Shown: positions 4,885 through 60,939 of the stretch, one piece after another | How positions within the stretch are numbered: position 1 is the stretch's first letter | How the letters are laid out: each line of letters begins with the position of its first letter | Assembly: GCA_046351325.1 (NCBI GenBank) | Contig: JAXLYR010000002.1 | Coordinates: 496,334-560,333 of the forward strand | Origin: Polyangiaceae bacterium | GTDB lineage: Bacteria > Myxococcota_A > Polyangia > Polyangiales > Polyangiaceae | Length of the DNA stretch: 64,000 nt | Direction: 5' to 3' | Notes under the pieces: generated by a model | Database searches by the model: none | What the model was told of the DNA's origin: nothing | The model's input: only the letters and a program-made list of their open reading frames with translations | Made by a program: the position numbers and the translations under genes

Positions 4885-4963
4885 GTCATGATATCGACGT
4901 GACAGCGGGGGTCGAGACCCGCGCCGGACGTTGTCCGTAGAAGCGGAGATTCGGAGGAACTCG

Positions 4964-6343
4964 ATGCGCTCCCGTGTGTTGCTCTTGTCCATTCTCCTCG
5001 CAGCTTGTGACGCCGCCGTCGAACCCACACCGTCGGGCCCCAGCGGCACTGGCAGCGGTGCCAAGAGCCAAGTCACCTCATCCCCGCGCGCGCCGGCCTC
5101 GAGCGTCGCTCCACAGCCCAAGCCGGTGGTGAGCGTCTCCGCTCCAACGCCAGTGACGCCCCAGCCCGTCGTGAAGAAGACGCCGCCCGCGAACGTGACC
5201 GAGCTCGCTGCGAGCACCAATCACCTCGGGCTCGACGTCTACAAGCAGGCTCGCAAGGAGCCGGGAAATCTGGCCATGTCGCCGGTGAGCATAACGACCG
5301 CGCTCGCCATGACCTACGGCGGCGCCGCAGGCTCCACTGCCGACGAGATGAAGAAGACCCTCTATTTCCAGGGCTCGCAGGGCGACGTCATGAAGGGGAT
5401 GGGGGATTTGGCAGGTTGGGTCGAGAGCCCCGGGCGACCCATCACGATCCGGATTGCCAATCAGCTCTTCGGGGAGAAGACGTTCGGCTTCGAACCGGCA
5501 TATCTCGACGCGATGAAGGCCTCCTACGGGGCGCCGCTCGAGCCGCTCGACTTCAAGAACGACAGCGCGGGTGCGCTCTCGCGCATCAACGGTTGGGTCG
5601 AGGAGAAGACCGAGAAGCGCATCCAGAATTTGCTCGAGCCGCCGGCGATCAACTCCGGCACGCGGCTCGTATTGGTCAATGCGATTTACTTCTTGGGGAA
5701 ATGGTCGGTGCCTTTCCGCAAGGAGGCGACGAACGACCAGGATTTCTCGGTCACCAAGAGCGACAAGAAGCGCGTGCCGACGATGCACCAGACGGGGGGA
5801 TTCGACTACGCCGAAGTCGGGGACACGAGCGTTCTGCGGATGCCGTTCGGCGACAACACGGTCGCGATGTACATCTTCTTGCCGAAGAGCGTCGACGGCC
5901 TGGCCGCGCTCGAGACCTCACTCGACCCGGCGAAGCTCGATGAGCTCGTCAAGAAGGTGAAGCGCGAAGAGGTCGTGATCTCGCTGCCCAAGTTCGAAGT
6001 CGCCCCCGAAAAGGCCGTGAGCCTGGCCGCGATCCTGAAGAAGCTCGGGATGACGTCCGCGTTCGACCCGAAGCTGGCGGACTTCTCCAAGATGGCCGAC
6101 CCGAAGCAGGCCGAGGGGGGACTCTCGATCACCGACGTCTTCCACAAAGCCTTCGTGAAGGTAGACGAGGCGGGGACCGAGGCCGCAGCGGCGACGGCGG
6201 TCGTGGCGGCGCCCGCGGGCGCGGTGGCCACATCGGACATCAAACAATTCGCCGCGGACCATCCCTTCTTGTTCGTGCTCCGCGACGACACGACGGGGGT
6301 CGTGCTCTTCATGGGTCGCGTCATGGACCCGAGCGTGCACTGA
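4964..6343 (+). CDS. Serpin-family serine protease inhibitor, lipoprotein
   Basis: Serpin signature segments are present: NAIYFLGKWSVPF, the hinge EAGTEAAAATAVV, and C-terminal HPFLFVLRD. Lipobox LLAAC. GGAGG sits 8 nt upstream of the ATG at 4964. Confidence 0.9.
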   Translation: MRSRVLLLSILLAACDAAVEPTPSGPSGTGSGAKSQVTSSPRAPASSVAPQPKPVVSVSAPTPVTPQPVVKKTPPANVTELAASTNHLGLDVYKQARKEPGNLAMSPVSITTALAMTYGGAAGSTADEMKKTLYFQGSQGDVMKGMGDLAGWVESPGRPITIRIANQLFGEKTFGFEPAYLDAMKASYGAPLEPLDFKNDSAGALSRINGWVEEKTEKRIQNLLEPPAINSGTRLVLVNAIYFLGKWSVPFRKEATNDQDFSVTKSDKKRVPTMHQTGGFDYAEVGDTSVLRMPFGDNTVAMYIFLPKSVDGLAALETSLDPAKLDELVKKVKREEVVISLPKFEVAPEKAVSLAAILKKLGMTSAFDPKLADFSKMADPKQAEGGLSITDVFHKAFVKVDEAGTEAAAATAVVAAPAGAVATSDIKQFAADHPFLFVLRDDTTGVVLFMGRVMDPSVH

Positions 6344-7614: not shown

Positions 7615-8733
7615 ATGGATTGTCCAAGGTTGAAAATGGGCAAACCCATCACTGGCGAGCACAGCGAAACCCTGGATGCTGGGGTCGTCCGTGCGTCTGG
7701 CGAGAGCTCGGGCGGCGGGCCTATGTCCCCGCGAGACCTCATCGCGCTCCAGGCGGGTTGTGTCGTCGATGGGCGGTATCGGCTCATTCGGTTTCTCGCC
7801 GAGGGCGGGATGGGGCAGGTCTGGGTCGCCGAGCATACGAGCCTCGAGCGTCTCGTGGCGCTCAAGGTCGTCGCAGTCCCATCCCCCGTCGTGCGTGCGC
7901 GTGTCCTGCGAGAGGCCAGGCTGCTCGCGGCGCTGCATCACCCCGCTGTCGTCACCGTGTACGACTGCGGTGATCTCGACCGGCAATATCGGGCCTTCGA
8001 CGGCGGCGGGCAGCCGCTCCGTGGCGCGTACATCGCGATGGAGCTCGCCTCCGAGGAGACCCTCGAGCAGCACCTCGCCGCGCGGGGCCCGCTCCCGGCA
8101 AAAGACGCAGTCCAGCTGTTGATCCCTGTGTTGGACGGGCTCGCGGTCGCGCATCGACAGGGCATCATCCACCGCGATCTGAAGCCTTCGAACGTCGTGG
8201 CGAGGCGCGCATCGACCGGCGCGCTCGAGGACGCGAAGCTCCTCGACTTCGGAATAGCGCACGTGGAGCGCGCCGCCCCGAGCACGCTGACCGCCGTCGG
8301 CGGCGTCATCGGAACACCCCAATACATGGCCCCCGAGCAGATCGCGGGTGGCGTCATCGGGCCACACACCGACGTGTGGGGCTTCGCGCTGACGCTCCTC
8401 GAGCTCGTCACGGGTAAGCCGGTTTGGGACGCGCCCGAGCCGAGCTCGGTCATGGCGAGGATCCTCGGCGTGCCCCCCACGCGCCCCGACCCGAGCCGCG
8501 TCGACGCGAGCCTCTGGGCGATCCTCGAGCGCGCTATTGCCAAGTCGCGCGAGGAGCGGATCGGCTCGGTCGTCGAGCTCCGTGAGCGGCTCGTGCGCTG
8601 GTCAGCGGCGAGCCCGAGCGTCGTGAACACGCAACCGTCTCCCCGCGCTTCGGCGCTCGACGCGCTGGATACGACCGACGACGCGCCGCCGTCGCTCGAC
8701 GAGCTCATTCGCAAACGATTCCAAGACAACTGA
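7615..8733 (+). CDS. Ser/Thr protein kinase, Hanks-type
   Basis: Gly-loop AEGGMGQVW, VAIK-like VALKVV, HRDLKPSNV, DFG and APE (YMAPEQ) motifs are all intact. An alternative start is the ATG at 7636. The gene ends 10 bp before the PYP gene. Confidence 0.85.
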   Translation: MDCPRLKMGKPITGEHSETLDAGVVRASGESSGGGPMSPRDLIALQAGCVVDGRYRLIRFLAEGGMGQVWVAEHTSLERLVALKVVAVPSPVVRARVLREARLLAALHHPAVVTVYDCGDLDRQYRAFDGGGQPLRGAYIAMELASEETLEQHLAARGPLPAKDAVQLLIPVLDGLAVAHRQGIIHRDLKPSNVVARRASTGALEDAKLLDFGIAHVERAAPSTLTAVGGVIGTPQYMAPEQIAGGVIGPHTDVWGFALTLLELVTGKPVWDAPEPSSVMARILGVPPTRPDPSRVDASLWAILERAIAKSREERIGSVVELRERLVRWSAASPSVVNTQPSPRASALDALDTTDDAPPSLDELIRKRFQDN

Positions 8734-8743
8734 GGAGTAGGAA

Positions 8744-9814
8744 ATGCTCGAGCTGGATCCGCAGATGCCCCCGCCGTCGTCGTCGTTCGACCCCGCGCGC
8801 ATCGACGAAAAGCCGGACTCCGAAATCGACGCGCTGCCGTTCGGGGTCATCGCGCTCGACGCCGCCGGCACGATCCTCCGATTCAACCTCTACGAATCGA
8901 GGCTCGCGCGGCTCGATCGCAACCAGACCCTCGGGCGGAACTTCTTTCGCGAGGTCGCGCCGTGCACGCGCACCGAGACCTTCGAGGGGCGCGCGATGCG
9001 GCTGCTCTCCCACGGCGCGGTCGGCGAGACCGAGTCGTTCGAATACGTGTTCGCGTTCGCGTTCGGCGAGCAGCACGTCAAGGTCGAGATGTTCGTGCCG
9101 TCCCCGGGGCGACTCTACCTATTCATCAATCGCAAGAGCATCCGCAAGACTCGGATGCTCGGTGACGACGTCCCGCTCGCGGTCGAGCAGCGCGCGCTCG
9201 CGCCCGACGAGCGATCGCTCGGTGTTCGGCGCGACGAGCTCGAGCGGCGCGCCGTCGATGTCCCGGCGCCCTTCTTCGCGGCGCTCCGCGCCACGTGCGA
9301 TCGCGTCGCGCCCGAGAGCTGGCAGCTCTTCGCCTCCGAGTGGGGAGTTCAGTGGGGCCGACGCGTGGCCATCGATTTGGAGGCTTGGGCGACCGAACAA
9401 GGCGAGCCTGCGCTCCGCGAGATCCCCATGCGCCGCGTCGCCGAGCTCGTATCCCGATATTTCTCGGACCGCGGCTGGGGTATGCCGCTGTTCGACTTCG
9501 GTCGCGCCGCCGAGGGCATCGTGGCCATTTCGGTCGAGCGGAGCGCGCTCGCCGAGACGAGCTCGTCCGCGCGGATCGGTCGCGGCCAGGAGCTCTCTTG
9601 CCATTTGCTGGCCGGTAGCTTCTCGGGCGTCTTCACCTATCTCGGCAATCGGCGCTTGGCCGTGCGTGAGGTCGCGTGTCGATCCGCGGGCGAGCCTGTC
9701 TGCTCGTTCGTCGTCGTCTCCCACGATCGCAGGACGACGGTCGACAAAGCTCTGCGAGCCGGCGCTCGCGGCATCGAGAGCATCCAGAACGCCTTGCGGC
9801 GCACGCCGAGCTGA
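8744..9814 (+). CDS. Photoactive yellow protein (PYP) domain fused to a C-terminal putative effector-binding module (XylR_N/V4R-like)
   Basis: Residues ~27-125 align without gaps to Halorhodospira PYP (LAFGAIQLD..ILQYN..GKNFFKDVAPCT vs LPFGVIALD..ILRFN..GRNFFREVAPCT). Cys69 and Glu46 are conserved. The C-terminal part has a CxxxG...C...G...C pattern (ELSCHLLAGSFSG...ACRSAGEPVCSFVV) reminiscent of V4R. Confidence 0.85.
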   Translation: MLELDPQMPPPSSSFDPARIDEKPDSEIDALPFGVIALDAAGTILRFNLYESRLARLDRNQTLGRNFFREVAPCTRTETFEGRAMRLLSHGAVGETESFEYVFAFAFGEQHVKVEMFVPSPGRLYLFINRKSIRKTRMLGDDVPLAVEQRALAPDERSLGVRRDELERRAVDVPAPFFAALRATCDRVAPESWQLFASEWGVQWGRRVAIDLEAWATEQGEPALREIPMRRVAELVSRYFSDRGWGMPLFDFGRAAEGIVAISVERSALAETSSSARIGRGQELSCHLLAGSFSGVFTYLGNRRLAVREVACRSAGEPVCSFVVVSHDRRTTVDKALRAGARGIESIQNALRRTPS

Positions 9815-10110
9815 GGTCGCCAATGGACAGCTCCTTCCTCTTGTCCTCGCGACGCGAGAGTGACAACGCGGTAAGCGAAGCGCGGCTCGGCGGGCGCGAC
9901 CTCGTCGTCGGCTGGGCGGGTGACTGGCCACCCGGCGCGTCGGCGATCGAGGTGCTCGACGCCGTATCCTGGAGTGGCCGCGCCCCGGACCCGGAGAAGC
10001 TCGGGGCCCTCGACTTTCTGTCGTACTTGTTCGGCGCCTAGGTCCCGGGGGCTCTCCCGACGGCCGCCGTTGACGCGCGCGGGACACTTTCTACGCTGGC
10101 GAGAGCTCCT

Positions 10111-10980
10111 ATGCCGACGCCGCGAGTTGCTTCCCTCCTGCTGGTCATGAGCCTTCCCCTCGCGGTCGCGTGCGCGGAGGGCGACACCCTGAACGCTGGC
10201 GGCCACGCCTCGGGCGCTGCTGGCGGCGGCCCTCCGACGAGCGGGGGCGGCGGCGCGGGCGCCTCGTCGTTCGGGGGTGATGGTCAAGGTGGTTCACCAA
10301 CTACGACGAGCTCCTCGTCGAGCTCCTCGAGCTCGAGCAGCTCGTCGAGCAGCACCTCGAACGGTGGCGCAGGCGGCGGGCCCGCCTGCTCGGAGCAGCC
10401 CTGCAAGCTCACAGAGCCGCAGTGCGGTTGCGACCCGAACCAGCAATGTACGGTCGACGCGAGCGGACGCTCCTGTATCCCTGAGGGCAGCGTCGCTTGG
10501 GGGCAGCCCTGCACGGGCAACAACTGCGCTCCCGGACTGCTCTGTCTACAGACCACTCCGACCGAGGCCACGTGCGGCAAGTTCTGTGACTCGGACTCCG
10601 ACTGCACTGCACCCGGCGGGCTCTGCATTCTCACGCTCAATGACGGCTCTGGCGGCGAGATCCCGAACGTCACGATGTGCACGGACAACTGCAACCCGCT
10701 CAACAACCTCGGCTGTGCGGTAGGGGGTTGTCAGATCCTGACGGAGTCTATGGGACTGATGCGGTCTCTCACGCTCTGCGTGGACGCTGGCGCGGGTACG
10801 CAGGGGGCGGCCTGCGTCGGCAACGAGGACTGCGCGCCGACCTTCGGGTGCTTCAACGACGGCATCAGCGATCTCTGCTTGAAGTGGTGCAATCTGGCGG
10901 CGCCGAGCTGCCCCGCCGCGACCACCTGCCTGGACGTGGCGGTGTCGCTGGGCGGGATCAACTATGGGGTCTGTTACTGA
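10111..10980 (+). CDS. Cys-rich repeat secreted lipoprotein with a 17-residue poly-Ser tract
   Basis: Lipobox LAVAC. A Gly-rich tether is followed by S17, then repeated C-x-D-x-D-C and CxxxC modules (about 30 Cys) resembling myxobacterial Cys-rich repeats. Confidence 0.7.
   Translation: MPTPRVASLLLVMSLPLAVACAEGDTLNAGGHASGAAGGGPPTSGGGGAGASSFGGDGQGGSPTTTSSSSSSSSSSSSSSSTSNGGAGGGPACSEQPCKLTEPQCGCDPNQQCTVDASGRSCIPEGSVAWGQPCTGNNCAPGLLCLQTTPTEATCGKFCDSDSDCTAPGGLCILTLNDGSGGEIPNVTMCTDNCNPLNNLGCAVGGCQILTESMGLMRSLTLCVDAGAGTQGAACVGNEDCAPTFGCFNDGISDLCLKWCNLAAPSCPAATTCLDVAVSLGGINYGVCY
10309..10359 (+). repeat. Homopolymeric Ser codon tract (17 x AGC/TCG) inside the CDS
   Basis: The nucleotide run agctcctcgtcgagctcctcgagctcgagcagctcgtcgagcagcacctcg encodes S17. 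Confidence 0.8.
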
Positions 10981-10992
10981 CGTACGTGTCTG

Positions 10993-11994
10993 TCAGTTCA
11001 AGATCTCGACCGCGCTCGCCGCGAAGTCCGCGCTGACCTCCGTCGAGTCGGTGCAGCCGCCAGCCATGTCCGTGGTGGAGCACCAATCACCCTTGAAGAG
11101 GATCACGTTGTTCGCGTCGCGCTTGCATTTCATCGTAGGGGCTTGGCCGTCTCCATAGGTCGTCGCGTCACCACTCAAGAGGACGCAGAGGCTCTGGTGA
11201 ACGGCTGCGATCTCGATTGTGTCCGCGTTCTCCAAGGTGATGTACGCGTGCACGTGGCCTCCTGGGACGAACGCGCTCACCACGTCGGTCGGCTGGCAAG
11301 AATCGCCGGGGCTGAGACCAGCGCTGTTGTAGAGGCCAATGCAGTTCTTGTCGGCGGAGAGTGTGCTGTCATCGAATTGCAGCTTGGATAGGGGCATGAG
11401 GAGGGGCTGGGTCGCCCCGTCGTCGAGGTAGAGCACGAGCGGCAGATCGACGCCTACCCCGGTCGCGAACGCGCCACTTGCATCCGGCGTCGCGTCGAGC
11501 ACGACCGGGTGAACGGTCACGTTGCCGACAGTCTCGTTATCGACGAAGGAGTAACCCGCGGAGGGATCCGCGACGGGTTTGGCGCCGCCCGTCTTGAGTG
11601 TGTGCGCGGCTGTATCGAACTGCATGAGCCAGCTGAACGTGCCAGTCCCAGGGAGATTGCAGCTCGCGAGCTTGGGTAGCGCGCCGCCGCTCAGCGTCCC
11701 ACCCACGATCCCAGCCGCGAAGGCCGATGGCTTCTGGAAGGTTACCTGCGACATCCGCAGGCCGAACTTCGTTGCGCCGTCATTGTCGGTGAGGCTGATG
11801 CAGTCGTGGCCCGCGTCGCAGCTCGCCTTTGGACTGCAGGGGTAGCTGCCGCCAGTCCCGACGCCGCCGCCCGCTCCCCCGGTGGCGCCGCTAGCGCCGC
11901 TGCCGCCCGCTCCCCCGCTGCCGTCGTCGCCGCACGCGCCGAGGACCCCCACGATCGCGATCACCCCTGTCAGACCCGAGACCCTTAAACTCAT
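10993..11994 (-). CDS. Hypothetical secreted lipoprotein
   Basis: Starts at MSLRVSGLTGVIAIVGVLGAC-GDDGSG with AGGAGG 8 nt upstream. A Gly-rich tether follows. The remainder looks beta-rich. Confidence 0.65.
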   Translation of the reverse strand: MSLRVSGLTGVIAIVGVLGACGDDGSGGAGGSGASGATGGAGGGVGTGGSYPCSPKASCDAGHDCISLTDNDGATKFGLRMSQVTFQKPSAFAAGIVGGTLSGGALPKLASCNLPGTGTFSWLMQFDTAAHTLKTGGAKPVADPSAGYSFVDNETVGNVTVHPVVLDATPDASGAFATGVGVDLPLVLYLDDGATQPLLMPLSKLQFDDSTLSADKNCIGLYNSAGLSPGDSCQPTDVVSAFVPGGHVHAYITLENADTIEIAAVHQSLCVLLSGDATTYGDGQAPTMKCKRDANNVILFKGDWCSTTDMAGGCTDSTEVSADFAASAVEILN

Positions 11995-12115
11995 CGGCGA
12001 TGCCTCCTGGCTCGATCGAGCCTTCGAACAAACCGCCAACATCGCACGCTCCGGCGCGCCTCGTCACGGGTCTTCTTGCCAATCTTCGTGTAGATGGTAT
12101 TACGCTGATAAAGTA

Positions 12116-32168: not shown

Positions 32169-33063
32169 GGAACGTCGTGATGGGTCTACACCGATCCCGC
32201 ACGGGCCCCCACCATCCTCCCTTCAAACCCGCGCGCTTGGAGAAACCCTTGTTCGGGAGCGCGACCCACTCGTTGACGTTGCCGTTGAGGTCGTGGACGC
32301 CCTCGGGCGAGACGCACTCCGCCATCTTCCCGGTCTCGACGCGCTGGTCGACGACGAAGAGGGCGAGCCGACACGCGAAGTCCGCGAGGCAGGCGTCGTG
32401 TTTCGGGAAATCGTAGGTGCGCAAACGATATTTGCGATCGAACCAGCATTTCTTCGGGTCTCTGTCGAAGCCCGTGACGTGCGGCCGCATCTCCTCGCCC
32501 TCGCAGGCGAACGTGAACTCCACGTCGGTGCAGAGGCGCTTGCCGATCCCCTCGCACCTGTCCTTCGCCTCTTGCCAGCTCGTGAGGTTCCTCGGGATGA
32601 CGCCGGGCCGGTTCGGCCACTCGTAAGTGTCCATGCAAAATCGCATCGGCTCGCGCTTCGGGGAGAGGCATCGCGAGGGGCTCGCGAACCGGCGACACTG
32701 CGATTTCTCGACCACTCCGAGCGCGTGCTCGGCCGCCGCGGCGTCGGGGTCGGGCGGTGAATACGAGGTGCAGACCTGTTCGACCGCGGGGCAGTAGTCA
32801 CCCGCGACGAGCCGCATGTCCAACGGGCACGCGACGCCGGGCGCGCCGCGCTCGTTCGCGCTCGGTGCCCCGCTCGCGCTCGGCCCCACGCTCGGCCCTG
32901 TGCTCACCGAGGCAACGACGAGCGACGCCGCTCCGGTCGCGGACGCGGCGGGCGCGGAAGCGCTCGCGCTCGCCGTCGAGCTCGGGCCGCTCGACGAGGG
33001 AGCGCTGCAGGCGTGGAGCAGAGCCGCGAGCGCCGCGAAGAGCGTCGCCCTCGCGGCCCTCAT
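32101..33063 (-). CDS. Formylglycine-generating enzyme (SUMF1/FGE) family lipoprotein
   Basis: Lipobox LLHAC. FGE-domain motifs GVHDLNGNVNEWV, GGWW and GFRCC. Its stop overlaps the fadD-like gene by 4 nt. Confidence 0.8.
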   Translation of the reverse strand: MRAARATLFAALAALLHACSAPSSSGPSSTASASASAPAASATGAASLVVASVSTGPSVGPSASGAPSANERGAPGVACPLDMRLVAGDYCPAVEQVCTSYSPPDPDAAAAEHALGVVEKSQCRRFASPSRCLSPKREPMRFCMDTYEWPNRPGVIPRNLTSWQEAKDRCEGIGKRLCTDVEFTFACEGEEMRPHVTGFDRDPKKCWFDRKYRLRTYDFPKHDACLADFACRLALFVVDQRVETGKMAECVSPEGVHDLNGNVNEWVALPNKGFSKRAGLKGGWWGPVRDRCRPITTFHGESDYGYEVGFRCCKDAASGG

Positions 33064-34841
33064 CCCTCAGTGTATTGCGCGTCGATCTGCGCGCCGTAGC
33101 GCTGCACGGCGACGCGACGCTTGAGCTTCAGGCTCGGCGTGAGAAGGCCGTTCTCCACGGTGAAATCCTCGGGGACGATGACGACCTTTTTGATGTCCTC
33201 GAAGCCCTTGAACTCCTTCGCGTACTTGTCGACCTCGCTCTTCATGTGCTCGACGACGCGCGCGTCCTGGATCAGGGCCTCGGGCGACGAGGTCGTGATG
33301 CCGTGTTGCTCGGCCCAAACCTTCAGGTTCGGCAGGTCGGGCGCGACGACGACGATGTTGAACGCGCGGTTGTCGCCATAGACCATGCAGTTCGCGATGA
33401 ACGGCGAGAGCTTCAGCTTCTCCTCGAGGGGGGCGGGCGCGACGTACTTGCCGTTCGCGAGCTTGTAGAGCTCCTTCAACCGGCCGGTGATGTAGAGGAA
33501 ACCCTCGCCGTCGACGTAGCCGAGATCCCCGCTCCTGAAGCCGCCGTCGTCGGTGAAGACGGCCTTCGTCTCGGTCTCGAGCTTGTAGTAGCCCTGCATC
33601 ACGTTGGGGCCCGAGATCACGATCTCCCCGTCCTTCGAGTCGGGCGAGGTCTGCGACTTGTCGATGGTGATCTTCACGTCCTTGATGGCCTTGCCGACGC
33701 TGCCGATGCGGTGCGCGCCAGGGCGATTCGCGGTCGCGATCGGGCTCGTCTCGGTGAGGCCGTAGCCCTCGAACACCGTGATGCCGATGTTGTCGATGAA
33801 CTCGGCGACCTCGCGCGAGAGCGCCGCGCCCCCGGAGAACGCGTACTTGAGCCTGCCACCGAGGCGCGCGACGACCTTCGAGAAGACGACCTTCTTCGCG
33901 ATGGGGTACGAGAGCGACTCGAAGAACGTGGGCGTCTCACCGCGACGTCGCTTGTTCGCGCAGCTGAGCGCCGCCGCGACCATCTTCTGGACGAAGGCAG
34001 GGCGCGACGCGATCTGCTTGTTCACGTTGTCGTAGACGCGGTTGAAGATGCGCGGGACGGAGAAAAGCAGGGTGGGGTGAACCTCGCTGAGGTTGTCGAT
34101 GATCTTGTCGACGGCCTCGGCGAGGGCGATGCTCGCGCCGCGCGAGAGCATGCTGTGCAGCTCGCACGTGTGCCCGAACGAGTGCGCCCACGGCAAGAAC
34201 GAGAGGCTGCGATCGTCGGTGCCGATCGGCAGCATTTCTTGAACGGCGTTCACGTTCGAGATGATGTTGCCGTGCGAGAGGATGACGCCCTTCGGGTTGC
34301 CGGTCGTGCCCGAGGTGTAGATGAGACACGACGTGTCCTTCGGCTCGGGGTCGATGCTCTTCACCGGGCTCTCGCGACCCTTCGCGCGCAGGGCGCCGAA
34401 GCTCTCCGGGTCGCTGTCCGGCAGATCCATCCCGATGATGTTCTGCACGGTCGGGACGGCCTCTTTCAGCTTCTTGCAGCCCTCGTAGGCCTTGGGTGTG
34501 CCGGCGACGAGCATCACCGCGCCGCAGTCGTTCACGATGTACTGCCACTCGCTCGGCTTCACGGCCTCGTACATGGGGACGAGCGCTGCGCCGAGGCCGT
34601 AGCAGGCGTACGCGAGCACGGCCCACTCGAGGCGGTTGTTCGCGACGACCGCGACGTTGTCCCCGCGCTTCACCCCGAGCGCCGCGAGGCCGCCGCGCAC
34701 CTCATCGACCATCTTGCCGACCTCGGTGAACGACGTCCAATGCCAGACGCCGTTCTTCTTCGTACCGAAGAGCGGAGAGCTGCCGTACTTCTTCACGGAC
34801 TGCTCGAACATGTCGACGAGGTTCTTGAACGGCTCGGCCAT
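33060..34841 (-). CDS. fadD: Long-chain fatty-acid--CoA ligase (AMP-binding, FadD-type)
   Basis: AMP-binding box IYTSGTTGNPKGV. EGYGLTE and the C-terminal …LTPSLKLKRR are typical of FadD/FACS. Confidence 0.9.
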   Translation of the reverse strand: MAEPFKNLVDMFEQSVKKYGSSPLFGTKKNGVWHWTSFTEVGKMVDEVRGGLAALGVKRGDNVAVVANNRLEWAVLAYACYGLGAALVPMYEAVKPSEWQYIVNDCGAVMLVAGTPKAYEGCKKLKEAVPTVQNIIGMDLPDSDPESFGALRAKGRESPVKSIDPEPKDTSCLIYTSGTTGNPKGVILSHGNIISNVNAVQEMLPIGTDDRSLSFLPWAHSFGHTCELHSMLSRGASIALAEAVDKIIDNLSEVHPTLLFSVPRIFNRVYDNVNKQIASRPAFVQKMVAAALSCANKRRRGETPTFFESLSYPIAKKVVFSKVVARLGGRLKYAFSGGAALSREVAEFIDNIGITVFEGYGLTETSPIATANRPGAHRIGSVGKAIKDVKITIDKSQTSPDSKDGEIVISGPNVMQGYYKLETETKAVFTDDGGFRSGDLGYVDGEGFLYITGRLKELYKLANGKYVAPAPLEEKLKLSPFIANCMVYGDNRAFNIVVVAPDLPNLKVWAEQHGITTSSPEALIQDARVVEHMKSEVDKYAKEFKGFEDIKKVVIVPEDFTVENGLLTPSLKLKRRVAVQRYGAQIDAQYTEG

Positions 34842-56333: not shown

Positions 56334-59174
56334 CTACGCGAGCGACGGGACCGCGTCGTTCTTCGCGAGCTCGACGCTCGCGCCGGGGACGGTCGTGGCC
56401 CAGGCACGCGCCGCGTCGAGCACGCGCGCCGAGGTCACCCTGTCGAGCAGCGAGACGTCGCCGAGGCCGATCGCGAGCTTCACGCACGCGCGAGTTGCCT
56501 CGAACGGCCGAGGCCAAGCGCGAGCACGTGCGACGCCCGCGCGATCGAGCGCGCCGAGCAACGCGAGGGCGCGACCGCGCGCCCAGCCGAGCGACTGCGA
56601 GACGCTGCCGTCGCGTGTGGCGCGCAGCGTGACGACGAGCCAGCTCGCGTGGCGGCGGTGCAAGGGTGGGGGAGTGAAGAGGCGCTCGACGTCGCCCGTG
56701 GACGCGAGCTCCCAAGCCTCGAAGAGCTCCTCGGTGAGGGTCGCGACGCCGCACGCAGGGAGCGCAGCGGACATCGAGCGCGTGGGCGCGGTCGGAGTGA
56801 GCACGCCCGTGAGCTCCGCGGCGACCGCGCGTTCGAGCGCGACGGGCTCACGAAAATCCCAGCCCGCCCAATGGGCGAAGAAGCCCTCGAGCCGCGGGTT
56901 CGAGCCGGGCGTCGCGGCGACCATCACGAGCCACGCGAGGCTCGGGAGCGTGCCGAACGCGGCGCTGTCGAGCCCTCGCGCGCGGGCCCAGCGCTTGACG
57001 AGGCGCGCGAGCTCACGGAGGTGAGGTTCGCGCTCGAAGAGGGCGGCGAGCGCCTCGGCGTCGCTCACGGCGCTGAGCGCGAGCGCGGCAGGCTCTGCGA
57101 GCTCGAGGCGGCGCGCGACCGCTTCGGAGACTGCGAGCGGCGCGCAGTCGACGAGCGCGAGATCCACGTCGAGCCCGCTCGCGAGGGAGAGCTCGAGGCC
57201 GGGGACGCGCGCGCCGACGATGTGGCGCGGGGGCTCGCGGAGCGCGAGCCCGCTCCTCTCGAGCGCGGCGGAGACGGACTCTGCGACGCGGTGCGGATCG
57301 AGGTCGCGGCCTGTGGCGACGAGATCGAGATCGCTGTCCGCGAGCGCGCAGTCGAGCGCCTGCGAGCCCGTCACGAACACGCCTGCGTCGGGAAGGCCCG
57401 CGCGGATCACCTCCGCGACGCGGGTCGCGCTGACCGAGGCGCGCAGCGTGGACGCCGAGGGTCGACAAAGCCCGGCCCGACAAAGTCCGGGTCGCTCGTC
57501 GAGCCACGTGAGGCGAGCGCGAGGCCCGAGCTCGAGCCTCGCCCGAGACTCCATCGGACCGCCCGCGCGCGATGACAAAAATGTAAGCTCGCGCACCGCG
57601 AGCGGCTGCGACGTGAAGGCCCTGGCGACGGGCGCGACGGCGGAGAGCTCGCCGCGGCCGAGCGTGAGGTGCGGGGAGCTCTCGGCGCGCGCGCGGCACG
57701 CGGGCAAAGGCGCGCGCAGCAAGGCCGTGAGCTCGCGCCAGCGATCCGCAGGGAGCGCGGGCAAATGCACGGTGGGCGCGCCCTTGTCGTGTTCGAAAAT
57801 CGCGGGCTCGCCGAGGGTCGCGTCGAACGGCGCGACACGCCGAGCCTCGTCGAGGAGCAGGCGCGCTGCGGCCTCGAAGCTCGACTCGGGGACGAAGCCG
57901 AAGACGACGTTGACGTGAGGTGGCCAGCGGCTCGCCTGCGGATCGTGGAGCGCGCGCGTTCGCTCGATCGCGGCGCAGGCCTCGGTCGGTGGGAGCCACG
58001 CGAGCGCGGTGCTCGCCGTGGACGGGAGCTCGAGCGTCGCGCGCGCCTCGAGCGGCGCGAGATCGGCGACGACCGCCCCGTGATCGGACGCGAAGAGGGG
58101 CGGAGCACCGGGCTCGATCGGCTCGGTGGCGGCGAGCTCGGCGCGCTTCACGGTGAGCTCGCGCGAGGTGAAGAGCACGCGATCGAGGCGGCGAGCCTCG
58201 CCCGAGAGCGACGAGAGCGCGGCGAGCGTGTTCGCCGTCGGATCGAACGTCGCGCCGTCGCCACGCGGATCACCGAACACGCGCTCGGTCGAGGTCCACG
58301 CGTCGGCGAGCCCGAGGCTCGCGGCGAGCTCGGGATCGCCGTCGTTGAAATCGCCCGCGACGATGACGTCGCTCGAGAGCGACGCGATCGCGGAGGCGAG
58401 GAGTTCGCGCTCGCGCCGCCGATGCTCGCGCGCCTGCTCGCGGTGGTCGCTGCTCAGGTGGAGCGCGACGAAGGCGACGCGGCGCGGAGGCGCGGCGCCG
58501 CCCCATTCGATCACGGCGGCGACGAGCGCTTTGTGGCTCTTGCGCGCGCGCGGCCCATCGGCGCCGAGATCGCGGTAGCCGAGCTCGAGGATGGGCCACC
58601 GGCTGAGCAGCACGAGGCCACATTGTTCGACGTCGTCGCGCGAGGGACCCACGTGGTAACGCGAGCGCACCCAGCCCGCGCCGAGCAGCAGCTCGAGGAG
58701 CGGGAGCTCGACCTCTTGAAGCGCGATGAGATCCGCGTCGAGCCCTTCGAGGAGCTCGAGCTGATGGGGCCGGCGACGCTCGGTCGCGAGCCGATCGGCG
58801 TCGTAGCGATCCCACAGCGTGTTCCACGTGACGACGCGGAGCTCGCCGTTCGACGCGGGCGCCATCGCCGTAGGCTCCGGCGACGCGAGCACGACGCGAG
58901 GCTCGAAGAAGGTCTGGAGCTCGAGCTTCGCGCGAGCGCGGCCTGCTTCGGTGCGATCGAGGATGTCGAGGCCCGCGCGCCGATCCCACACGGTGACGCC
59001 ATCGGCTTCGAACGCGACGACGCGATGCCACGGGATGTCCCCGCCGGCGACGAAGTCGCTGAACGCGACGCGCTTCAGCGACGCGCCGTGCACGTCGAGC
59101 CCGATCGTGAACCGCGCGGCGTCGAGCGAGGCGTCCCACCGGATCCGGTTGTAAATCTCCTCACTGGTCCGCAT
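56334..59174 (-). CDS. Multidomain putative RNA end-processing/repair protein: MJ1316(DUF504)-like, EEP nuclease/phosphatase, 2H phosphoesterase-like, pol-beta nucleotidyltransferase
   Basis: N-terminus MRTSEEIYNRIRWD…IPWHRVVAFEADGVTVWDRR (MJ1316-like). EEP motifs VVTWNTLW, ALQEVE, AGDFND and FASDHGAVV. 2H-like HVNVVFGF and HLTLGRG. NTase GVFVTGSQALDCALADSDLDLV. The start was moved to 59174, giving a 14-nt overlap with the upstream gene. Confidence 0.8.
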   Translation of the reverse strand: MRTSEEIYNRIRWDASLDAARFTIGLDVHGASLKRVAFSDFVAGGDIPWHRVVAFEADGVTVWDRRAGLDILDRTEAGRARAKLELQTFFEPRVVLASPEPTAMAPASNGELRVVTWNTLWDRYDADRLATERRRPHQLELLEGLDADLIALQEVELPLLELLLGAGWVRSRYHVGPSRDDVEQCGLVLLSRWPILELGYRDLGADGPRARKSHKALVAAVIEWGGAAPPRRVAFVALHLSSDHREQAREHRRRERELLASAIASLSSDVIVAGDFNDGDPELAASLGLADAWTSTERVFGDPRGDGATFDPTANTLAALSSLSGEARRLDRVLFTSRELTVKRAELAATEPIEPGAPPLFASDHGAVVADLAPLEARATLELPSTASTALAWLPPTEACAAIERTRALHDPQASRWPPHVNVVFGFVPESSFEAAARLLLDEARRVAPFDATLGEPAIFEHDKGAPTVHLPALPADRWRELTALLRAPLPACRARAESSPHLTLGRGELSAVAPVARAFTSQPLAVRELTFLSSRAGGPMESRARLELGPRARLTWLDERPGLCRAGLCRPSASTLRASVSATRVAEVIRAGLPDAGVFVTGSQALDCALADSDLDLVATGRDLDPHRVAESVSAALERSGLALREPPRHIVGARVPGLELSLASGLDVDLALVDCAPLAVSEAVARRLELAEPAALALSAVSDAEALAALFEREPHLRELARLVKRWARARGLDSAAFGTLPSLAWLVMVAATPGSNPRLEGFFAHWAGWDFREPVALERAVAAELTGVLTPTAPTRSMSAALPACGVATLTEELFEAWELASTGDVERLFTPPPLHRRHASWLVVTLRATRDGSVSQSLGWARGRALALLGALDRAGVARARAWPRPFEATRACVKLAIGLGDVSLLDRVTSARVLDAARAWATTVPGASVELAKNDAVPSLA

Positions 59175-60939
59175 CGTCGTCGAGCCCCCCGGTGCTGTCG
59201 GTCGCCTCGGCGGCGCCGTCACGAGCCGCGGCCGCGCGATAGACGAGGCGGTCTGCGTCGCCTGGAAACGGCGGGCGACAGCGCGCGATCTGTTCGTCGA
59301 GGACGTCGACGGGGACCGCGTGTGCGCGGGTCGCGTTGCGCGCCCCGAGCAGCGCGCGCGGCGTGAGGAAGACGACCTGCCAGACCTGCGCGCCGAGGCG
59401 ATGCGCGACGCTCTCGGGGAGCTTGCGCTGCTGCGGGATCAGGCTGGTCGCGTCCCAGATCACGTCGCGCCCGCTCGCGAGCGCGCCGTGCAGTTTCTCG
59501 AGGGCCTCCCCGAGGACCGCGGCGTTCTCCGATTGATCGGCACGCGCACCGCGGCTCTCGCGGAGAGCGTCGAGCGCGATGACGACCGACGGGCGCTCTC
59601 GCGTGTCGCTGGGGTCGTGCGCCGCGAGCGAGCTCTTGCCGCTGCCCGAAGGGCCCACGAAGAGCGTGAGCCGCGGGCGGCGCGCGGAGCGCATGCGAAA
59701 CGTCGCTTGGATCGCCTCCGGCGCGCTCACGAGGGCGCCGCGCACCCAACCCGATCGGGCCTCGGCCCAGCACTGCTCGGCGATGCGCGCGTCGGCCATC
59801 GCGTGGATGCCAGCGAACTCCGCGCGAACCGCGCGGCGGAGCTCACCGATCGGCTCGCGCGCGAGCAGGCCGTGCTCCTCGGCGAGGAGCTCCGACCACG
59901 CGATCGCGTCGACGGCCTGCGCGTCGCTCGCGTGCGCGGCGCGAGCGACCGCGTGCGCGACGCCGAGGTCTGCGCCGAGCGACATCCAGCGAAGGCCGCG
60001 CGGCGTGGGGTTCTCGGGTTCGGGCGACGCGATCTTCGGCGCGAGCGCTGCGACGTCCGCGATGCGTCGCGCGAGCCGCGGACCGAGCGCGACGGCGAGC
60101 TCCATCATGAGCTCGCCGCGTGGCAGGTCGGGGAGGAGCGCGGCGAACGCGGCCTCGACGCGCGCGTCACCGAACCGGCCGAGGGCGTCGAGCCCTGCGT
60201 GAACTGCGGAGAGTCGCGTGTCGTCCGCTTCACGAGGAGGTCGCGCGAGCGTCGGGGGCAAGAGGTCGAGGAGCGTGCGCGCGGGCACGAGCTCACCGCC
60301 GCGCGCAGCCCAGAGCGCGGCGCGCGGACCGCGTTCATTTTCGATGAAGGGCCCGCGCATCCAGTGCTCGTCGGTCTGGACGTGGTCGCGTCGAACCCAC
60401 TTCGCGACGCTCGCGGTGAAGTCGTCGCGCGAGAAGCCGCTCGCGAGCCGAACGACGTAGCCCTCTTGTCGCGCCGGATCGATCTTCAGGCGGCGGAGCG
60501 CGTTCTCCTGGAATACACCTCGAAAGAGGACGGGTGGCGTCGGCAACCCGAGGTCCGCGGCGAAGCGCACGGTCTCGTCCCACGAGAGCGCGTCGTCACC
60601 GTTCCAGACGCTGAAGGCATAGAAGAAGCTCTCGAGATCCGCGTACGCGATGGAGTGCCGCGCGTGGACGTTCTCACCCGAGATGCGGAAGCCCGCGGGG
60701 ATGCGATCGCGGATGCGCCCGTGCAGGGCCTTCACCCAGGCGCGCGACGGGTGGTGCGCGGAGTCCGGCGAGCGCGCGTGGAGCCCGTCGGAGTAGAGCG
60801 TGGTGTTCTCTCCGTCGAGCTTCTCCGTGACGACGACCTCGCGGCCTTTGAAGCTCGCGAGATCGACAAGCCGGACATCGTCCGCGGTCGCGCCCGGCGA
60901 CCATGGCAGGTGCGGGGTTCGAGGGTAGCGGACTCGCAT
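59161..60939 (-). CDS. RNA ligase (ATP-dependent, KxDG nucleotidyltransferase) fused to P-loop polynucleotide-kinase-like domain
   Basis: N-terminus YPRTPHLPWS…VVTEKLDGENTTLY (motif I). EGYVVR (motif IV) and AKWVRRDH (motif V). The C-terminus has Walker A FVGPSGSGKSS and the AAA_33/Pnk-like VIWDATSL. Confidence 0.8.
   Translation of the reverse strand: MRVRYPRTPHLPWSPGATADDVRLVDLASFKGREVVVTEKLDGENTTLYSDGLHARSPDSAHHPSRAWVKALHGRIRDRIPAGFRISGENVHARHSIAYADLESFFYAFSVWNGDDALSWDETVRFAADLGLPTPPVLFRGVFQENALRRLKIDPARQEGYVVRLASGFSRDDFTASVAKWVRRDHVQTDEHWMRGPFIENERGPRAALWAARGGELVPARTLLDLLPPTLARPPREADDTRLSAVHAGLDALGRFGDARVEAAFAALLPDLPRGELMMELAVALGPRLARRIADVAALAPKIASPEPENPTPRGLRWMSLGADLGVAHAVARAAHASDAQAVDAIAWSELLAEEHGLLAREPIGELRRAVRAEFAGIHAMADARIAEQCWAEARSGWVRGALVSAPEAIQATFRMRSARRPRLTLFVGPSGSGKSSLAAHDPSDTRERPSVVIALDALRESRGARADQSENAAVLGEALEKLHGALASGRDVIWDATSLIPQQRKLPESVAHRLGAQVWQVVFLTPRALLGARNATRAHAVPVDVLDEQIARCRPPFPGDADRLVYRAAAARDGAAEATDSTGGLDDDADQ

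Follow-up and report, generated by a model that had tools for sequence, protein, structure and literature searches.

A PYP-V4R protein encoded between a Ser/Thr kinase and a small protein: a candidate signalling operon in uncultured Polyangia

Three adjacent genes in a Polyangiaceae genome

We analyzed a stretch of 64,000 nucleotides (the window) from a Polyangiaceae bacterium (contig JAXLYR010000002.1 of assembly GCA_046351325.1, positions 496,334 to 560,333). The window has a GC content of about 68%. It contains three adjacent genes, all on the forward (+) strand, which encode a standalone Ser/Thr kinase of the Hanks type (stk), a fusion of photoactive yellow protein (PYP) to a V4R domain (pyp-v4r), and a small protein. 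Among photoreceptors, PYP is a textbook case, and it also serves as the structural prototype for PAS domains. Our best reading of the comparative sequence data is that these three genes form a single signalling operon, and that this operon is limited to uncultured Polyangia (Myxococcota).

The first two genes had been described in a first-pass annotation of the window. Both open reading frames (ORFs) are present exactly as described, at 7615..8733 for the kinase and 8744..9814 for PYP-V4R, and the distance from the stop of the kinase to the start of PYP-V4R is 10 nt, which also agrees. PYP-V4R has a Shine-Dalgarno-like site (GGAG/AGGA) upstream. Its 356-amino-acid product is 100% identical to a protein in NCBI from a metagenome-assembled genome (MAG), where it is annotated as “V4R domain-containing protein [Polyangiaceae bacterium].”

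The third gene, which the first-pass annotation overlooked, is at 9823..10041 and encodes a protein of 72 amino acids. It begins 9 nt past the stop of PYP-V4R and has GAGG 8 nt upstream. Its G+C content at third codon positions (GC3) is 0.88 in frame, whereas the other two frames have 0.68 and 0.54. The gene is also called by NCBI (as “hypothetical protein U0271_09115”), and a hidden Markov model (HMM) detects it at other loci, as described below. When we scanned for the consensus sequences of promoters and terminators, we found no signal above the shuffled expectation, which is not surprising for a myxobacterial genome with 68% GC.

The kinase ORF, which is at most 372 amino acids long, matches the Pkinase family of Pfam (PF00069) with E = 1e-37 and 130.4 bits, while the cutoff is 31.7 bits. 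It had been described as an intact Hanks-type kinase that lacks a sensor domain, and this description holds: Pkinase is the only Pfam domain, there is no sensor or transmembrane domain, and the catalytic motifs are kept. Specifically, the VAIK lysine, the glutamate of helix αC, HRD, the asparagine, DFG, and APE are kept in 42–45 of 45 orthologues, and almost all of the shortfalls are alignment gaps in incomplete orthologue sequences. Given the conservation of these motifs, the kinase should be active. The true start of the kinase is probably the ATG at 7723 instead of 7615, which would give a protein of 336 amino acids, because GC3 is lower in codons 1–36 (0.69) than downstream (0.84) and because orthologues start there.

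By comparing the orthologues, we also identified a C-terminal tail in the kinase (8602..8730). The tail comprises a spacer rich in proline and alanine, which is variable among the orthologues and follows the catalytic domain, and a terminal motif with the consensus [ST][LIF]D-x-LI-[RK]-x-[KR]-[LF]. We can recognise this motif in most of the 45 orthologous kinases. The version in the window is SLDELIRKRFQDN (8692..8730). The motif resembles a short docking helix, and we consider it to be a candidate docking element.

Conservation of the arrangement across Polyangia

A homologue search with PYP-V4R found over 300 relatives. The best 120 of these are all about 350–370 amino acids long, with at least 93% coverage of the query and 49–62% identity. 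Four relatives lie on long contigs, and in all four, a small gene with just the Pkinase domain is followed by PYP-V4R and then by an ORF of 62–71 amino acids. The flanking sequences are wholly different each time.

We also scanned one genome per species of GTDB, using an alignment of the family as the query. (The family alignment was required: querying the genome contigs with a single sequence found no relatives.) The scan identified 44 loci (L007–L050), all of them in MAGs of Polyangia. These represent the Polyangiaceae, Byssovorax, Sandaracinaceae/Sandaracinus, Kofleriaceae, and Haliangiales. None of the 44 species-representative genomes with PYP-V4R belongs to a cultured species of Polyangia, so experiments will need heterologous expression.

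According to tblastn, a kinase is directly upstream of PYP-V4R, and on the same strand, at 42 of the 44 genome loci. One of the other two loci (L049) is broken inside the PYP gene and is not assessable, which leaves 42 of 43 assessable genomes. With the window and three other non-redundant loci, the count becomes 46 of 47 assessable loci, which represent at least four lineages of Polyangia. The distance from the stop of the kinase to the start of PYP-V4R has a median of 3 nt and ranges from -4 to +26 nt (n = 45). The first-pass annotation had linked the kinase to the PYP protein on the basis of their adjacency in the window and had proposed checking the synteny at other loci. Synteny strongly supports this link.

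To describe the small gene across loci, we built an HMM from copies that were identified with a regular expression. The HMM places the small gene immediately downstream of PYP-V4R at 41 non-redundant loci (E < 1e-4); two further loci are borderline and three are negative. At most loci, the start codon of the small gene overlaps the stop codon of PYP-V4R (ATGA or GTGA), which implies translational coupling. The N-terminus of the small protein is variable, basic, and proline-rich. Its last ~35 residues follow the pattern (V/I)RG..RPA..L..(V/I)PW(D/E)G..DP(D/E)xLxAxxFLxWL, the core of which can also be written more loosely as PW(D/E/S)G..DP(D/E)xLxAxxFLxxL. The small protein has no match in Pfam or NCBIfam, and the only match in a word-indexed protein search was to itself.

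Do any other genes recur near PYP-V4R? When we clustered the coding-like ORFs from 48 loci, only the genes of this cassette recurred, and the other large clusters were their antisense shadow ORFs. Also, the pairwise distances between kinases are correlated with the pairwise distances between the PYP-V4R proteins (Mantel r = 0.86; 0 of 2,000 permutations reached this value). This correlation fits the inheritance of the kinase and PYP-V4R as one unit.

Two points count against a functional link. A mirror-tree correlation is also expected from shared phylogeny alone, and one locus (L035) is a true exception, as it contains PYP-V4R without an upstream kinase. One could argue from L035, and from the evidence being all comparative, that the adjacency is without function: the genes might merely travel together, or the ORF calls might be artefacts. 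But the adjacency extends across Polyangiaceae, Sandaracinaceae, Kofleriaceae, and Haliangiales, with narrow spacing and unrelated flanks, and in each of the three ORFs, GC3 is strongly coding-like and the protein sequence is conserved. We consider it very improbable that the adjacency is meaningless.

At the exceptional locus (L035:4019-6008), a short-chain dehydrogenase and a TetR-like regulator are upstream of PYP-V4R, and the small downstream ORF is weakly detectable.

The PYP domain and the C-terminal sensor module

The first-pass annotation had aligned the N-terminal part of the fusion protein to PYP, and we found that it is a bona fide member of the PYP family. First, residues 20–130 (8801..9133) match the NCBIfam model for photoactive yellow protein (TIGR02373) with E = 4.6e-24 and 84.9 bits. 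Second, all of the PYP crystal sequences were matched (E = 3e-17 to 1e-13), and the best match was the PYP domain of Ppr (1mzu). Third, we used AlphaFold and 47 homologues to model the full-length protein, with a predicted local distance difference test (pLDDT) of 87.1. Using Foldseek, the model superimposes on the PYP structures 2qj7, 1mzu, and 2phy with template-modelling (TM) scores of 0.85–0.90 and deviations of 1.5–2.1 Å, over 112–120 residues and at 33–38% identity. The domain has the expected PAS fold of ~125 residues with an N-terminal cap, and the cap is included in the superposition. The alignment to PYP had been described as gapless, but it is only nearly so: there is one insertion of two residues.

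The chromophore-attachment cysteine in the APCT motif and Glu46, which had both been noted, are present. In the numbering of PYP from H. halophila, Cys69 corresponds to Cys74 (8963..8965), which is within VAPCT, and Glu46 corresponds to Glu51 (8894..8896). Among the other positions, N43, T50, R52, F62/F63, A67, P68, F96, and Y42 correspond to N48, A55, L57, F67/F68, A72, P73, F103, and F47. The equivalents of C69, E46, N43, A50, F63, A67, and F96 are invariant across 45 family sequences. That the chromophore pocket is so strictly conserved is an argument for a photoactive domain in this family, and p-coumaric acid would be attached to Cys74.

The equivalent of Tyr42 is a tyrosine in 44 of the 45 family members. 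The protein from the window is the only one with phenylalanine (Phe47, 8882..8884), which the first-pass annotation had not noted, and would lack the hydrogen bond from Tyr42 that is expected in the PYP family. The substitution is a single-base difference, TTC versus TAC. Phe42 is found in 8.9% of natural homologues of PYP (PMC12826048). In the window, it may be a real variant (for spectral tuning) or an error in the assembly or consensus of the MAG. Another position that varies is 68, next to the chromophore cysteine, which is Pro73 in the window: it is arginine in 22 of the 45 clade members, while proline is 70–96% conserved in PYPs generally.

The remainder of the protein had been compared to the A domain of XylR and DmpR, which senses effectors, with an XylR_N-like stretch and a V4R-like segment. 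The V4R segment is confirmed by Pfam: residues 276–325 (9569..9718) match PF02830 with 43 bits, above the gathering cutoff of 31. The XylR_N-like stretch is not recognized by Pfam, as PF06505 has no match to PYP-V4R at E ≤ 1, but its fold is supported by comparisons of structures and of profiles. (A distant relative, P0163, scores 22.9 bits against XylR_N, for which the cutoff is 23.)

When residues 131–356 are modelled alone, pLDDT is 87 and the predicted TM score (pTM) is 0.79. In a Foldseek search with this model, the first 18 matches from the PDB are all phenol-sensor domains, from MopR, DmpR, and PoxR (E = 1e-8 to 8e-7, TM = 0.55–0.67). The next matches are Bet3/TRAPP and the archaeal V4R protein MJ1460. 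For the profile-profile comparison, our references were A domains of the XylR family from plasmids, along with the sequences of MopR, PoxR, and DmpR from PDB alignments. Using hhalign, the C-terminal profile of the family matches the A domains with 89% probability and E = 2.2e-6. The alignment has 175 columns and spans residues ~28–206 of MopR and ~151–337 of PYP-V4R (9194..9754). Because the match is this long, homology runs through the XylR_N part. In the model, then, the module has the overall fold of an A domain, with both the helical XylR_N part and the α/β V4R part, and the fold that was proposed in the first-pass annotation is right.

We rejected two other descriptions of this region. 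It is not just a short cysteine motif, as the whole of 131–356 folds confidently as an A domain. Nor is the protein a regulator of the XylR family, because the AAA+ and HTH domains are absent: a domain search found no B-linker, sigma54 AAA+ domain, or HTH output, and the protein ends after the A-like module.

A linker and the N-terminal β-hairpin of the sensor module (residues 131–175, 9134..9268) are conserved as QRxLAPDE...GVRRDxLERR. Residues Q149, L152, A153, P154, E156, G160, V161, R163, D164, and R169 are invariant in the family, and pLDDT is 70–85 across this region. Within the family, pairwise identity averages 61% in the PYP domain, 47% in the linker, 48% in the A-like module, and 43% in the kinase.

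The A-like module contains a predicted structural zinc site (9599..9703). C286 (9599..9601), E309 (9668..9670), C312 (9677..9679), and C320 (9701..9703) align, column for column, with C155, E178, C181, and C189 of MopR, and all but one of the 45 family members retain these residues. The site might instead be a redox or oxidative-stress switch, as has been proposed for archaeal MsvR, so that the protein would integrate blue light with photo-oxidative stress and act on the kinase. In myxobacteria, the responses to blue light and to singlet oxygen are linked, and the invariance of the four ligands and a weak match to the V4R segment of MsvR (E = 0.0017) could be read in this way. However, the match to MsvR is far below the cutoff (18 bits versus 220). 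Also, the equivalent site in MopR, with C155, C181, and C189 as the zinc ligands, is reported to be structural and about 10 Å from the ligand pocket (PMC9556785). We think that a redox switch is improbable.

The first-pass annotation also proposed that the module binds an aromatic effector, which our alignments do not show. H106 and W134 of MopR, which anchor the hydroxyl group of phenol, align to S237 and to the invariant R266 (by hhalign; at 16% identity, the register is uncertain). An aromatic-effector role for the module is a hypothesis. Besides these phenol-anchoring residues, the missing domains, and the lack of a match to XylR_N in Pfam, the protein differs from XylR, DmpR, MopR, and PoxR by having PYP fused at its N-terminus.

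To see where else this module occurs, we ran an exhaustive phmmer search with residues 131–356 against 1.84 billion representative proteins, which gave 221 matches with E ≤ 1e-3. Nearly all of the matches of about 350–370 amino acids have a PYP domain with [VI]A[PR]CT. A sister group consists of standalone proteins of ~215 amino acids. A few longer proteins have the architectures REC-DUF4388-PAS-V4R, DUF4388-PAS-V4R, or double V4R. Four metagenomic proteins (P0199, P0235, P0258, and P0267) have the first two of these architectures, so a PAS domain followed by the V4R module recurs outside of the PYP clade.

In three MAGs of Verrucomicrobia (L051:3353-4645, L052:3064-4666, and L053:3328-4651), tandem pairs of V4R genes are directly downstream of a gene for a REC-sigma54 AAA+ activator. 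These activators have no sensor domain of their own, and Hpt and REC-GerE genes are nearby. The layout looks like a “split XylR.” At these three loci, the standalone relatives of the module are preceded by the activator gene and are not paired with Ser/Thr kinases. As judged from this comparison, the pairing with a kinase is specific to the clade with PYP, while the module itself seems repeatedly to act together with a catalytic partner encoded next to it.

A possible light-regulated kinase

Fusions of PYP to V4R were described by Dohmen et al. (J Bacteriol, December 2025; PMC12826048), who reported 20 PYP-V4R proteins, with PYP always at the N-terminus, and interpreted them as two input domains without a relay domain. 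These have the same architecture as the protein from the window and belong to the same sequence family: the supplement includes proteins from MAGs of Polyangiaceae, Sandaracinaceae, and Myxococcales that match our family's consensus. The operon table in that study lists GGDEF/EAL, HisKA/HATPase, p-coumarate–CoA ligase (pCL), tyrosine ammonia-lyase (TAL), and BLUF, and Ser/Thr kinases are absent. Whereas no operon partner was reported for PYP-V4R, we find two near-universal partners, a Ser/Thr kinase and the small protein, and we find that the V4R region is a full XylR-A-type module with the zinc site of MopR.

An earlier survey, by Xing, Gumerov, and Zhulin (2022; PMC9664959), proposed that PYP originated in Myxococcota. 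It mentions neither V4R nor Ser/Thr kinases, and it says that no downstream partner of PYP was ever identified. Both surveys consider the signalling chain downstream of PYP to be essentially unknown. When we searched the full text of the literature for “threonine kinase” in combination with PYP or V4R, we found nothing relevant. The first-pass annotation knew of no described arrangement of PYP, V4R, and a Ser/Thr kinase. Since the PYP-V4R fusion has been published, this claim to novelty is reduced; the part that stands is the kinase partner, which is absent from both surveys. The operon with the kinase and the small protein is not described in the literature we searched, and it appears to add something new and testable to the biology of PYP.

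A kinase without a sensor must be regulated by something, so the adjacent protein with two sensor domains is the obvious candidate. We see about an even chance that PYP-V4R is a blue-light (and possibly ligand-gated) regulator of its partner kinase, within a three-gene operon. The mechanism could be as follows. p-Coumaric acid on Cys74 would be the blue-light input. Photoisomerisation, and the transfer of a proton from Glu51, would loosen the N-terminal cap and the β-sheet of PYP. This change would be relayed via the conserved linker to the zinc-stabilised, and probably dimeric, A-like module. The module would then gate the kinase in trans, much as the A domains of XylR and DmpR gate a neighbouring catalytic domain (an ATPase) in cis. 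Plausible points of contact are the C-terminal tail motif of the kinase, the small protein, or both. The A-like pocket could also take up a small ligand, hydrophobic or anionic, as a second input, and redox gating is conceivable as well. Our comparisons show the identities of the domains, the invariance of the chromophore and zinc residues, the intact active site of the kinase, and the conserved, tightly spaced operon. In this proposal, we infer the attachment of the chromophore, the physical interaction, the direction of signal flow, the substrates of the kinase, and the existence of any ligand.

The signal might also flow in the other direction. The kinase could phosphorylate PYP-V4R, the small protein, or both, and the photoreceptor would be the regulated target (for instance, in its sensitivity or its binding to partners), with the real output outside of the operon. 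The partners of bacterial Hanks kinases in operons are often their substrates. No output domain can be recognised in PYP-V4R, its Thr184 and Ser267 do not vary within the family, the linker is conserved, and the tail motif of the kinase could serve to dock substrates. On the other hand, this leaves the kinase without an input, even though a dual-sensor protein is encoded next to it. Furthermore, across the 48 loci, the cassette has no conserved FHA domain or other domain that reads phosphorylation. We view the reverse flow as unlikely, but it is the alternative that we take most seriously.

Several further observations weigh against the proposal that PYP-V4R regulates the kinase in response to light. 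The score of the window protein against TIGR02373 does not reach the equivalog cutoff of 143.05; that model was built for standalone PYPs. The pTM of the full-length model is 0.64, so the geometry between the domains is uncertain. The substitution Y42F perturbs PYP from H. halophila (PMC12826048), which bears on the protein from the window. No fusion of a kinase to V4R or to PYP is found among the best 150 of the 221 representatives with the module, so there is no Rosetta-stone support for an interaction. And the source of the chromophore is not obvious. The first-pass annotation suggested looking for tal and pcl genes. We found neither in the window, where no aromatic ammonia-lyase is present among the TAL- or pCL-sized ORFs, and neither recurs within ±5 kb of any of the 48 loci. 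The lone AMP-binding ligase in the window (33060..34841, - strand) is 23 kb away and is FadD11/long-chain-like.

The lack of tal and pcl is one reason to consider that the cassette might be a chemosensor and not a photoreceptor. It would report hydroxycinnamates or other phenolic (lignin-derived) compounds to these bacteria of soil and sediment. The A-like module would bind the free compound, and PYP would either load it covalently, so that formation of the holo-protein is the signal, or act as an ordinary PAS domain. The chromophore of PYP is itself a para-substituted phenol, and the C-terminal module is closest in structure to phenol sensors. More tentatively, the invariant R266, at the position of W134 in MopR, could suit a carboxylate. 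Relatives of the protein are labelled “predicted hydrocarbon binding protein” by JGI. However, the residues that anchor phenol (His and Trp) do not appear to be conserved, while Cys69, Glu46, Tyr42 (in 44 of 45), and the whole pocket for p-coumaric acid are strictly conserved, which is the signature of a photoactive PYP. Nor is the absence of nearby tal or pcl genes unusual, because just 5% of predicted pyp operons carry TAL and 32% carry pCL (PMC12826048). We consider a pure chemosensor to be quite unlikely.

If PYP-V4R does convey a light signal to the kinase, then how does this compare to known systems? In Ppr and Ppd, light is likewise sensed by an N-terminal PYP that acts on an output of phosphorylation or second messengers, but that output is fused (PYP-bacteriophytochrome-histidine kinase, or -GGDEF/EAL) and is a histidine kinase or a cyclic-di-GMP enzyme. 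Here, the presumed output is a separate Hanks-type kinase, and there is no phytochrome. The single-domain PYPs of Idiomarina, next to a GGDEF protein, and of Leptospira, next to a sensor-less chemoreceptor (PMC9664959), are more alike in that PYP lies beside a sensor-less signalling protein and presumably controls it by protein-protein contact. However, a eukaryotic-like Ser/Thr kinase has not been reported as a partner of PYP, and the unit in the window adds a sensor module and a small protein. Finally, in the LOV-Ser/Thr kinases of plants and algae (phototropin and aureochrome-like proteins), a blue-light sensor of the PAS family controls a Hanks-type kinase. This is a functional analogy only: LOV uses flavin mononucleotide rather than p-coumarate, those proteins are fused and eukaryotic, and no homology is implied beyond the PAS and kinase superfamilies.

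PYP-V4R was published as two inputs with no output. With a near-obligate kinase partner, a small protein, and a tail motif, there is now a hypothesis that can be tested with defined constructs, and the operon is a concrete candidate for the long-missing signalling partner of PYP. If the light-regulated kinase is real, then PYP signalling would gain a new class of output, Ser/Thr phosphorylation. The system would be a bacterial counterpart to the phototropin-type light-regulated kinases, would offer a compact natural scaffold for the optogenetic control of kinases, and would bear on how PYP signals in the phylum of its presumed origin. We speculate, with somewhat less than even confidence, that PYP controls a eukaryotic-like Ser/Thr kinase here, which would be the first natural pathway of this kind: a three-component switch, gated by light and possibly by a ligand, that acts via the kinase tail and a small adaptor. 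As the phylum that conserves this arrangement is also the proposed birthplace of PYP, the switch would be a candidate for the ancestral mode of PYP signalling.

Elsewhere in the window, two genes immediately downstream of the cassette (10111-10980 on the + strand and 10993-12042 on the - strand) encode signal-peptide-like proteins that are rich in Gly/Ser and in Cys and have no match in Pfam. The first of these has a run of ~18 serines and begins 70 nt past the small ORF, on the same strand, and this neighbour is not kept at other loci. Upstream of the cassette, at 4931-6343 (+), is a full-length serpin (E = 2e-110 in Pfam) with a lipoprotein-like leader at its N-terminus. Near the other end of the window, at 59161-60939 (-), is a gene for a 592-amino-acid protein that has both an RNA ligase domain and an AAA_33 kinase-like domain and may be an RNA-repair enzyme.

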